A stretch of DNA of 64,000 nt from a virus (taxonomy: Duplodnaviria; Heunggongvirae; Uroviricota; Caudoviricetes), in IMG/VR virus record IMGVR_UViG_646311923_000012; one strand, 5' to 3'. A program made the position numbers. This document shows, piece after piece, positions 6,001 through 9,000 of the stretch (positions within the stretch are counted from its first letter, which is position 1; the number at the start of each line of letters is the position of its first letter).

Positions 6001-9000
6001 AAAGGTCATCCGCGGCTCTGTGCCCCCGAAACCATCCGGGACCGTCTGGTCGCAGTACTGCCCGATGGCATACAGCGCCCACTTGTCAACATCCGCCGCC
6101 ACCAGACGTTTTCCCATGCCATAGCGCGGGTGAGTCAGCATGTCCCACAGGCACCAGGCCGGGTTGTTGCTGTATGCCGGTTTCAGGCTGCCGTCCCAGA
6201 TGCCGCTGTACGTGCGTTTTTCCGGGTCATAGTTTGACGGTACCTGGATGATGCGACCGCGGATATGGTAGTTCACCGTCATCTGCTGACCGCCAAACTG
6301 CTCCGCATCCACCTGCAGCCCCACAATCGCCGTGTTCGGGTAGCACTGTTTCACATCGATGATTTCGGTGTATGACGACCAGAGCGTCTTATTCTGCAGC
6401 TGGTCCGTGGTGCTGTCCGCCGTCTCCCTGACCATCCGGATGTTAAAGGGCCGGGGCGGCAGATTATCCAGAATCACCGACGCCAGGAACTGCGAGGTGG
6501 TCTTGCCGTTAATGGTGACATCCTTTTCCGTCATCCATTTACCACCACGCTCAAGCTGAATCAGCAGGCGGACAGACGTCGGGTTACGGTCACCCTTTGA
6601 GGTGGTCTCCACCAGTGACTGCACCCCGAAGGTAACCCGCAGGCGGTCAATGTTCGCGGACGTAATGGTGCGCGTCACCGGCTTTGCCTTCGTCACTTCC
6701 ACGCCCAGTCCGGTTTCAGCTCCGGAGGACTCAAAGCCTTCCGGTGGTGTCTGCTCCTGCTCCCCGGCACGCCAGACCGCAGTCACACCGTGTATCACGG
6801 GATTACCGTCCGTGTCCATCAGCGGGGTTTTGTTCACCAGGATACTCTGCAGCCCCTTCACCGGGCCTTCTATCGGTCCCTCACCAATCGCATCAATCAC
6901 ACTCATCATCTGCGTGGATTTGAGATTATCCTTCGCCTCTCGAGGCGTGTGCGCCCTGCCGCCACCTTTGCCCATAATGTTCCTCTCAATTGGTATTATT
7001 AATCGCAGTGATAGGATATTGCACAGCTATTGCGCGATATCATCAGAACGCTGTTTGTTACCCTGTAACCAGCAAGCTCAGTCTGTTAACGGAATTAATG
7101 AGGGTTTTATGAAATGTAAAATCATTGCTGCCATTGCCATGCTGACAGCAGCATCATGCGGATACGCAGCAGAACAGGAAGTCCCAATGAACCTTGTCAG
7201 TGCTGACGGAAAAGAAGTCAGCATTGGAAAAATAACCATTCAGGAGACCCCCTACGGTCTGCTGTTCACACCAGCCCTTCACTCTCTGTCTGAAGGCATT
7301 CATGGTTTTCATGTGCACGAAAAAGGAAATTGCGCCCCGGCACTGAAAGACGGAAAACCGGTCGCAGCATTATCGGCTGGCGGTCACTTTGACCCGAAAA
7401 ACACCGGCAAACATCTTGGCCCCTGGTCTCCGGATGGACACCTGGGCGACCTCCCTGCGCTGTTCGTGACGCATGACGGAAAAGCGAACTACCCGGTCCT
7501 GGCCCCGAGACTGAACTCATTAAAAGAGATTAAAGGGCGTTCTCTCATGCTTCATGCTGGCGGTGATAACCATCATGACCATCCGGAGCCCCTGGGCGGT
7601 GGTGGTGCGAGAATGGCCTGCGGCATCATTCAATAATCAGTCAGGTAAGGGGCGGGCCCCTTACCTTTATTCCTCAGGACGATAAATCCTTTCTCCCTGA
7701 AAAGAACGGCACATCCTCCCTCTCTGAGTTAATGTTTTTGTCGTGACATAAGAATAATTCCTTACACTCAATCTTCGTAACGCTCCCGCAGTTCCTGTCC
7801 GTGAGCACTGCGGGATTTTTTCGCTTTTATGCCTGCCGCCCGATAACCACCACCTTCCCGTCACCGCCTTCATCACGGGTACTGATGTCCTGGGATATAC
7901 GGCGGGAGCCAACCAGCATTTCACCGTAAGGCACCGGCATCGGGTTCCCCTGAGCAATCATGTTGTCCAGTGAGGAAAAATACGTGTTCTGTCTGCCGTT
8001 ATCCGTTGCGCGGTAATCCGGTGTTTTTGCCTTCGGGGCCAGCATCTGGGCCACACCACCCAGTATCATGCTGGCTCCAAGTGAAAACAGCATCGTGGTG
8101 GCAGAAAAACCACCGGCTGCCAGGGCTGAACCCCATAACGCCATCGTTGCGCCGGCGGTGAAGAAAGAGCCCACGATGGCTGCCGCCCCCAGCACAATCT
8201 GCAGTCCACCCTTTCCGGCCCCGGCCAGTCGCGGCACAATGTGGATGACCGTTCCCTCACCCAGCTGTTCGTGAAGACGGGCGTACACCGCCTCCGGTGC
8301 CGTGTCCTCACCGCGAATACGTATCTGGTACCAGCCTTCGTTCATCTGACGGCGGAATCCCGGCATCTGCATCGACAGGGCACGGATGGCTTCCGCTGCC
8401 GTGTTCACATACAGGCTGAGGCGGCGGCCAAATCGTTGTAAATCCCCGTGAAGGCAGATACGTGCCAGTGGCGGTGACGCCAGACAGAATGCGTTCGTCG
8501 TTGCCATTTTTCGGAATACCTCTCCCGTTTACTCAGTTGTTCAGGCAGATGGTGAAGCAGCTCACCGTTGCCGCAGTAAATGGCGGCATGGTTCGGTACC
8601 GAAGCACCAAAGCAGCACAGCAGAATATCGCCCGCCTGTGCAGAGGACAGGGGCACCCGGTAAAAGCCGGTGACCGCCATATTGTCCAGGTAAAGGTTCT
8701 GACCGTTGCGCCACCAGTCATCCTCACGCTCAAAATCCGGCATATCAATTCCCGCCAGATGGTAGGCATCCCGGAACAGCGTGTAACAGTCCGTCACCCC
8801 GTGCTCAAAGCGCCGTCCTGTCAGATGTGGCACACAGCGGAATTTATGAATTTCCCCCCGGCAGACCAGCCACCAGGACAGTGCACTTTTTATCTGCAGC
8901 CGCCGGTCGGCCTCGCTCAGCCAGGGCAGACCACCGGGATGACTGTGGACCAGTGCCACAATCTCCCCCTGCATCTCTGCCCGCAGCCAGTCTTCCGGTG

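Follow-up and report, generated by a model that had tools for sequence, protein, structure and literature searches.

Prophages of pathogenic Escherichia coli carry a gene for a Cu,Zn superoxide dismutase (SOD), sodC-F, which is an established fitness and virulence-associated cargo in enterohaemorrhagic E. coli (EHEC). The stretch of DNA considered here, 64,000 nucleotides from the IMG/VR virus record IMGVR_UViG_646311923_000012 (the window in what follows), contains two prophages, A and B, and prophage A holds a sodC gene in the spacer between its tail genes J and I. This gene is the already published sodC-F (D'Orazio et al. 2008, PMC2569942). Because it is an established cargo gene, refinding it adds nothing by itself. 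The comparison of A with B concerns instead the site that the gene occupies: this known lysogenic-conversion gene very probably forms a self-contained cassette, at a junction where it is exchanged with a different cargo, a probable small RNA (sRNA) unit of the PasB family.

The two sodC-F genes of E. coli O157:H7 EDL933 are located in prophages CP-933R and CP-933V. Their products (SodC-F1, SodC-F2) are dimeric and stable enzymes, expressed in exponential phase and in anaerobiosis in an RpoS-independent manner, and sodC-F mutants are sensitive to hydrogen peroxide (PMC2569942). Accumulation of the SodC-F protein and superoxide dismutase activity of SodC-F1 have been published, and the leader can be either cleaved by signal peptidase I or modified with lipid at an AASC lipobox (PMC2569942). 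The promoter region of the EDL933 gene is active in promoter fusions, also independently of RpoS (PMC2569942).

Related genes are found in two Salmonella phages. The sodCIII gene of Fels-1 is in the same I-J slot and in the same opposite orientation as sodC-F, and its product shares 60% protein identity with SodC-F. However, it has unrelated non-coding DNA on both sides and no PasB-like unit downstream, and SodCIII is without the lipobox cysteine; Fels-1 retains a hairpin beside J. Gifsy-2 SodCI is likewise a periplasmic Cu,Zn SOD encoded in the tail operon on the opposite strand (~59-60% protein identity), but its gene occupies another slot, between a lom homologue and L, two slots upstream of I-J.

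PasB is an Hfq-dependent sRNA of enteropathogenic E. coli E2348/69, placed at NC_011601.1 1466343..1466261 on the minus strand and detected with the Northern probe AATCCCGCAGTGATCGCGGAGCT (both in Table S6 of Pearl Mizrahi et al. 2021, PMC8550237). It gives an Hfq-dependent Northern band and takes part in many RIL-seq interactions (PMC8550237). It lies within an operon that encodes structural proteins of phages, and no other Pas sRNA is as widely spread (Zhu, Shabalina and Storz 2026, bioRxiv 10.64898/2026.05.13.724894). In prophage PP6 of E2348/69 (locus L009), the PasB interval is found between I and J, where it immediately follows the stop codon of I, in antisense orientation to these genes.

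The simplest I-J spacer is that of phage lambda. It resembles prophage B of the window in having the same gene order and, upstream of J, an operon-strand hairpin with a T-rich tail (AAACCGCC..GGCGGTTT; positions 1250..1290 of locus L250), but it measures only 60 bp and holds no cargo, compared with 238 bp in B and 851 bp in A.

The J-I junction in prophages A and B

In prophage A, the spacer is bordered by gpJ, the tail tip or host specificity protein (3499..6975, minus strand, 1158 amino acids; seven gpJ Pfam domains with E-values from 1e-41 to 1e-22), and by the tail assembly protein gpI (7827..8507, minus strand; Lambda_tail_I, E 5.5e-16). Their counterparts in prophage B, on the same strand, are gpJ at 55942..59415, which aligns with the J of A at 90.6% DNA identity, and gpI at 59654..60334, with 96.3% DNA identity to the I of A. 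The start codon of J in B was taken as the homologous ATG at 59415..59413; the mechanical open reading frame (ORF) reaches to an upstream TTG at 59457. The spacers between these genes are therefore 6976..7826 in A (851 bp) and 59416..59653 in B (238 bp), exactly the intervals that an earlier note on this DNA had given. Further I-J junctions were aligned from AZ146, cM8a, EDL933, Fels-1 and E2348/69 PP6.

The flanks of the two junctions are homologous: J is 90-92% identical at its 5' end and I is 96% identical, and the last 106-107 bp beside I are common to A and B at 98%. On the J side, homology stops exactly at the J start codon, between positions 6975 and 6976 in A and between 59415 and 59416 in B. 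It resumes between 7720 and 7721 in A, corresponding to 59546 and 59547 in B, and this right boundary falls inside the promoter of an sRNA gene whose body is shared by both prophages. Between the boundaries, 745 bp of A (6976..7720) face 131 non-homologous bp of B (59416..59546). B has no sodC sequence at the junction, and each of the two segments brings its own, different ribosome-binding site for J.

Judged from this alignment, the difference between A and B is a cassette replacement and not a simple indel. The junction behaves as a cassette-exchange site that is fixed on one side by the start codon of J and on the other by the end of I. Prophage A holds sodC together with a promoterless copy of the sRNA gene, and prophage B holds a probable PasB-family sRNA gene together with a lambda-like hairpin. 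The earlier note had rightly described the second prophage as free of sodC, and the alignment of junctions that it proposed yields homologous flanks and an undisrupted sodC frame. The clean indel boundaries that it expected are borne out only on the left, where the edge at the J start codon is sharp; overall, 745 bp stand against 131 unrelated bp, which is a replacement. Its view that B carries only a hairpin terminator, so that sodC was replaced by a short hairpin segment, has to be abandoned: B also has a plus-strand promoter (59518..59545) and a terminator ending at 59648, and thus another cargo.

The hairpin of B is located at 59457..59480 on the minus strand, which is that of the tail operon, just upstream of the ribosome-binding site of J (terminator scan; fold -21.2 kcal/mol, z -3.9). 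Its stem is followed by the T-rich tail TGTTTTTGTG. Variants of this hairpin preserve the stem: one of its pairs can be U-A, C-G or U-G, the U-A/C-G difference being a compensatory change. Lambda, Fels-1 and E2348/69 PP6 likewise have a hairpin next to J, but the sodC-F allele lacks it. Since lambda and Fels-1 also have it, the hairpin belongs to the basal content of the spacer, and the unoccupied form of the site is that of lambda, not that of B. The B-type hairpin could serve to terminate stray transcription in the lysogen or to stabilise an mRNA end.

The sodC-F cassette of prophage A

The sodC-F gene is an ATG-initiated ORF at 7109..7636 on the plus strand, opposite to the tail operon, and encodes a periplasmic or lipid-anchored Cu,Zn SOD of 175 amino acids. 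Its product matches the Pfam family Sod_Cu (PF00080) with an E-value of 3.9e-32 and 111.9 bits, against a cutoff of 28.9, over profile positions 3-133 of 133, and the closest solved structures are those of bacterial periplasmic SodC proteins (E ~1e-62). In an alignment of five proteins, which adds the SodC of EDL933, cM8a, Fels-1 and Gifsy-2, the frame is intact and all catalytic residues are present: H68, H70, H93 and H149, as well as H93, H102, H111 and D114, are invariant, and so are C75/C171 and R168. The roles of these residues were assigned from established knowledge of the family. The first four are the Cu ligands, and H93 (bridging), H102, H111 and D114 those of Zn; C75 and C171 are the intrasubunit disulfide pair and R168 is the active-site arginine. 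Superoxide dismutase activity is predicted for the window protein, as published for SodC-F1.

The N-terminus of the protein reads as an export leader with the lipobox AASC, ending at Cys17, and with an alternative signal peptidase I site after Ala20. This leader is identical to the one analysed with LipoP and fractionation in PMC2569942. The gene has a Shine-Dalgarno sequence, GAGGG, at 7100..7104, and is followed by its own intrinsic terminator at 7643..7666 (plus strand; terminator scan), consisting of a GC-rich 10-bp stem, a 4-nt loop and then TTTATT (fold -17.9 kcal/mol, z -2.8). The same terminator is kept in the divergent allele of strain cM8a. The earlier note had correctly recognised a complete signal-peptide Cu,Zn SOD gene with a terminator of its own on the strand opposite to J and I. 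Its description as a fitness cargo gene also stands as far as an intact moron-type gene is concerned, although the identity with the published sodC-F had escaped it.

This sodC-F is an intact moron-type cargo gene in a lambdoid prophage, placed within the tail operon. The two genes on either side of it are neighbours in related phages, it is equipped with a terminator, and its base composition is unlike that of its surroundings, with a G+C content of 50.5% for the cassette against 57.7% for J and 59.6% for I. The gpI-gpJ junction that it occupies is itself part of a full set of tail and head genes.

The cassette is common. Among 5,426 complete E. coli genomes, 546 contain the 745-bp segment specific to A, and 541 of its 548 records are at least 99% identical to it, non-coding parts included. 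E. coli O157:H7 EDL933 has it in two places at 99.9% identity, with the same lipobox and the same I-J position as in the window. Nothing of substance separates the EDL933 genes from the window gene; the sole protein difference from one EDL933 copy is at residue 112, Leu versus Pro, and the host is another strain of EHEC/EPEC-like type, with its closest matches in O103:H2 and O45:H2 strains. There, as in other strains, a 1.4-kb region around sodC is 100% identical to loci where the gene is annotated (WP_000649829.1). In one otherwise identical locus J is annotated as frameshifted; it is intact in the window. The identical SodC protein (100%) is also encoded by two Stx2a phages, and in the one examined, LC567840, the gene has the same I-J position.

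A rare sodC allele occupies the I-J slot of E. coli cM8a (NZ_CM176589.1; 1630..2157 of locus L007). Its cassette shares 80% DNA identity and its product 81% protein identity with those of the window, the lipobox cysteine is present, and a complete PasB-type promoter and body follow downstream. The cM8a junction appears to be the version of the sodC and pasB junction without the deletion.

Being opposite to the tail operon, sodC needs a promoter of its own. The gene is preceded by a divergent control region of 133 bp (6976..7108, plus strand), with a G+C content of 39.8%, which includes the ribosome-binding site of J on the minus strand. A 32-nt block in this region, CTATTGCGCGATATCATCAGAACGCTGTTTGT, matches the cM8a allele perfectly, compared with 80% DNA identity for the cassettes as a whole. 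The sodC-F promoter probably lies within 6976..7108, a region that contains this conserved block. No PhoP box (TGTTTA-N5-TGTTTA, with up to 3 mismatches) was found upstream of sodC-F, cM8a sodC, Gifsy-2 sodCI or Fels-1 sodCIII, and regulation like that of Salmonella sodCI is therefore not claimed for sodC-F.

STnc400 weakly matched sodC at its 3' end, with 23 bits where the gathering score is 80, and was rejected as an identity, since neither the Gifsy-2 nor the Fels-1 sodC locus has a gathering-level match to this family.

The putative PasB-like sRNA unit beside gene I

In prophage B, the sequence next to gene I reads as a complete transcription unit antisense to the tail operon. A sigma-70 promoter at 59518..59545 (plus strand; TTCACA-16-AATAAT, 10/12 in the promoter scan) precedes a putative PasB-like sRNA of ~97 nt at 59552..59648 (plus strand), whose start was placed from the -10 box and whose fold has a z of -3.4. 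The sRNA ends in a terminator at 59612..59648, only 6 nt before the I stop codon. In prophage A, the body and the terminator of this unit are present at 7721..7821 on the plus strand, with 102 of 103 positions (99%) identical to the B copy in the pairwise alignment. The shared plus-strand terminator, CCCGCAGT...ACTGCGGG followed by T6, is found at 7785..7821 in A.

What is missing from A is the promoter. According to the multiple alignments, its place is occupied by a linker (7667..7720, plus strand) with which the A-specific cassette ends. In comparison with cM8a, ~45 bp including the -35 box are gone and the -10 box TTATAATT has become ATCCTCCC, after a retained GGCAC at 7708..7712. Because cM8a has sodC with a complete promoter, the common sodC-F allele carries an extra deletion and substitution. 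The promoterless form is the standard sodC-F allele, since the 745-bp segment used as query extends up to this scar and 541 records match it with 99% identity or more.

The promoter could be aligned across B, E2348/69 PP6, AZ146 and cM8a. The -10 box, AATAAT in B, is TATAAT in most other alleles, that of E2348/69 among them. No other part of the spacer is as well conserved as the promoter segment, and a 55-bp piece of it was found in 1,660 of the 5,426 E. coli genomes.

The E2348/69 junction aligns with that of prophage B, the hairpin segment and the promoter included. PasB and the window unit share their position, orientation, promoter segment, terminator stem and a core containing CUCCUU, a type of motif kept in both types of body; they differ in that the window allele has 79% identity over 96 aligned positions, with 16 nt as the longest shared word. 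The unit of prophage B is accordingly best regarded as a probable divergent allele of PasB. Bodies of the window type are present in 652 of the 5,426 complete E. coli genomes, at 1,008 places, and are never annotated, and bodies of the E2348/69 type are present in 956 complete E. coli genomes, at 999 places, again without annotation. Given the 79% identity and the absence of any shared word longer than 16 nt, the published survey by BLAST with a word size of 28 probably missed the window-type allele.

The alleles in IMG/VR are mosaic, combining differing 5' and terminator segments among 120 prophage contigs. In these 120 junctions, all sampled by the promoter motif, sodC is absent. The segment from the J ATG to the promoter is 187-188 bp with a different hairpin in 60 of them and of the 85-86-bp B type in 42; the remaining ones include ~14 with a hairpin variant and a GTG-initiated J, and one with an insertion element.

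Two other identities for the unit were discarded. The anti-sRNAs AgvB and AsxR sit at the PR' moron site near stx and not in the tail operon, and they have no Rfam match here. A small peptide encoded in the sRNA body is represented by an ATG-initiated ORF of 6 codons that is not retained in other alleles. The supplements of Tree et al. 2014 yielded no sodC or tail-gene entries, and a scan of genome contigs with a 17-nt pattern, which is too short, returned almost only chance matches in unrelated phyla and one Escherichia albertii contig. In the tail-fibre region of Fels-1 (positions 1385..1663 of locus L005), an IsrG sRNA was identified with 290 bits, a position that agrees with the reported occurrence of IsrG as a common neighbour of PasB loci.

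Alternative explanations

The simplest account of the two junctions would be an indel, in which sodC was gained or lost in an otherwise empty I-J spacer and B is the unoccupied site. The homologous flanks, the sharp left boundary at the J start codon and the lack of any sodC sequence in B are what such an event would leave. It is nevertheless very unlikely, because B has 131 bp without counterpart in A, holding the conserved hairpin and the promoter, and because the truly minimal spacer is the 60 bp of lambda. The cM8a junction also argues against it, as sodC coexists there with a complete promoter, so that the common sodC-F allele was further deleted and substituted. That sodC is a decaying or silent pseudogene in a defective prophage can be practically dismissed. 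Many EHEC prophages are defective, and the frameshifted J annotation in one otherwise identical locus would fit this idea, but the frame is intact with all its ligands, 541 of 548 records keep at least 99% identity over 745 bp that include non-coding DNA, protein accumulation and a mutant phenotype have been published for the same gene (PMC2569942), and J is intact in the window.

Exchange between a sodC-F cassette and a PasB-family unit remains the preferred reading, and several observations count against parts of it. The order of events, be it one of insertion, of deletion or of exchange, has been deduced from a small number of alleles. Upstream of sodC the scan gave no consensus sigma-70 match, nor anything promoter-like anywhere in 6800..8000, and for this reason the sequence does not fix the position of the sodC promoter. 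With its AATAAT box, the sRNA promoter of B may be weaker than those of the TATAAT alleles. The window-type allele differs from that of E2348/69 in most of the 5' half, and what is said of its expression, its binding to Hfq and its 5' end is prediction. Finally, no covariation was detected in the PasB-like RNA, where support for structure is limited to the invariant terminator stem.

These last points lend themselves to another explanation, namely that the unit beside gene I is a mere transcription insulator, a terminator shielding gene I from convergent transcription, and that the promoter match is fortuitous. The structural conservation of nothing but the terminator stem, the mosaic 5' half and the lack of a matching Rfam family would all suit an insulator, and expression data exist for the E2348/69 allele only. 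On the other hand, that allele is at the same position and yields the Hfq-dependent band and the many RIL-seq interactions (PMC8550237). In addition, the promoter segment is the best conserved piece, in 1,660 genomes, with a 10/12 match in B and a consensus TATAAT in other alleles, and the CUCCUU-type motif is retained in both body types, all of which makes an insulator unlikely.

A rather unlikely variant of the sRNA interpretation would be that, in sodC-F prophages, the sRNA is an extension of the sodC transcript produced by read-through of the sodC terminator, perhaps processed into an Hfq-binding sRNA derived from the 3' untranslated region. The window-type allele would then be a paralogue of PasB that has another seed and that escaped the survey. 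If true, this would couple an sRNA regulon to the expression of sodC-F.

Proposed mechanism

Under cassette exchange, the minimal state of the junction would be the 60-bp spacer of lambda with its single hairpin. In prophage A, the sodC-F cassette would have been fused to the sRNA body at a point inside the sRNA promoter. In the lysogen, sodC-F would be transcribed opposite to the tail operon, and head-to-head with J, from a promoter that its position suggests to be in the AT-rich 133-bp spacer. Its own terminator, and a second one 120 nt further, would halt this transcription before gene I, and the PasB-like body of A would be either silent or made only by read-through from sodC. The SodC-F protein would be exported by a signal peptide open to cleavage by signal peptidase I or to lipid modification at Cys17, and would bind Cu and Zn to remove periplasmic superoxide.

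During lytic growth, the whole junction would probably be read through by Q-modified polymerase. Such read-through is established lambda biology. The cassettes are likely to pass from one prophage to another through homologous recombination within I and J, which are conserved, as suggested by a cassette identity of 99-100% across many serotypes next to more divergent flanks.

Other features of the window

Prophages A and B are adjacent (47272..53900). The integrase gene of A (47272..48291) is followed by an ORF of 453 amino acids without a clear Pfam domain, which may be the espK effector annotated in related loci, then by an IS66-family transposase (51226..52797, minus strand) and by the tail-fibre end of prophage B. 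For the 42-64 kb part of the window, the best match among complete E. coli genomes has ~96-97% identity over at most 93% of the length. In the O103:H2 strain 129, both junction sequences are present at 100% identity, 352 kb apart. This suggests that the arrangement of the window is due to recombination between prophages or comes from a strain outside the collection.

Another part of the window has the layout of Shiga toxin (Stx) phages, in which tRNA genes, STnc100 and an esterase follow one another. Three tRNA genes (Met-CAT, Arg-TCG and Arg-TCT) and then an STnc100 sRNA (138 bits) are found at 29634..30150 on the minus strand, with an ORF for an AraC-family regulator just upstream of the tRNAs (30179..30892, minus strand). 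After them comes an ORF of 616 amino acids similar to sialate O-acetylesterases (27561..29411, minus strand; DUF1737/SASA). Where a toxin gene would be expected, in the ~490 bp that separate the tRNAs from the esterase-like ORF, no ORF of at least 120 amino acids is listed. The early region of prophage A contains a sok antitoxin RNA (34872..35046, minus strand; Rfam, 107 bits) and DicF (43806..43857, plus strand; Rfam, 77 bits), both above their gathering scores.

Significance

The I-J slot of these prophages is a two-cargo site, used by a protein moron and by a probable sRNA moron, and the sRNA promoter is gone from the common sodC-F allele. As prophage B carries an sRNA cargo, a sodC-negative junction of its kind is unsuitable as an "empty" control. 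The additions to what is known of this gene and of PasB are modest: a PasB-like copy without promoter is linked to sodC-F, and there is a second, unsurveyed class of PasB alleles. Surveys of PasB that use the E2348/69 sequence and long BLAST words probably undercount this second class.

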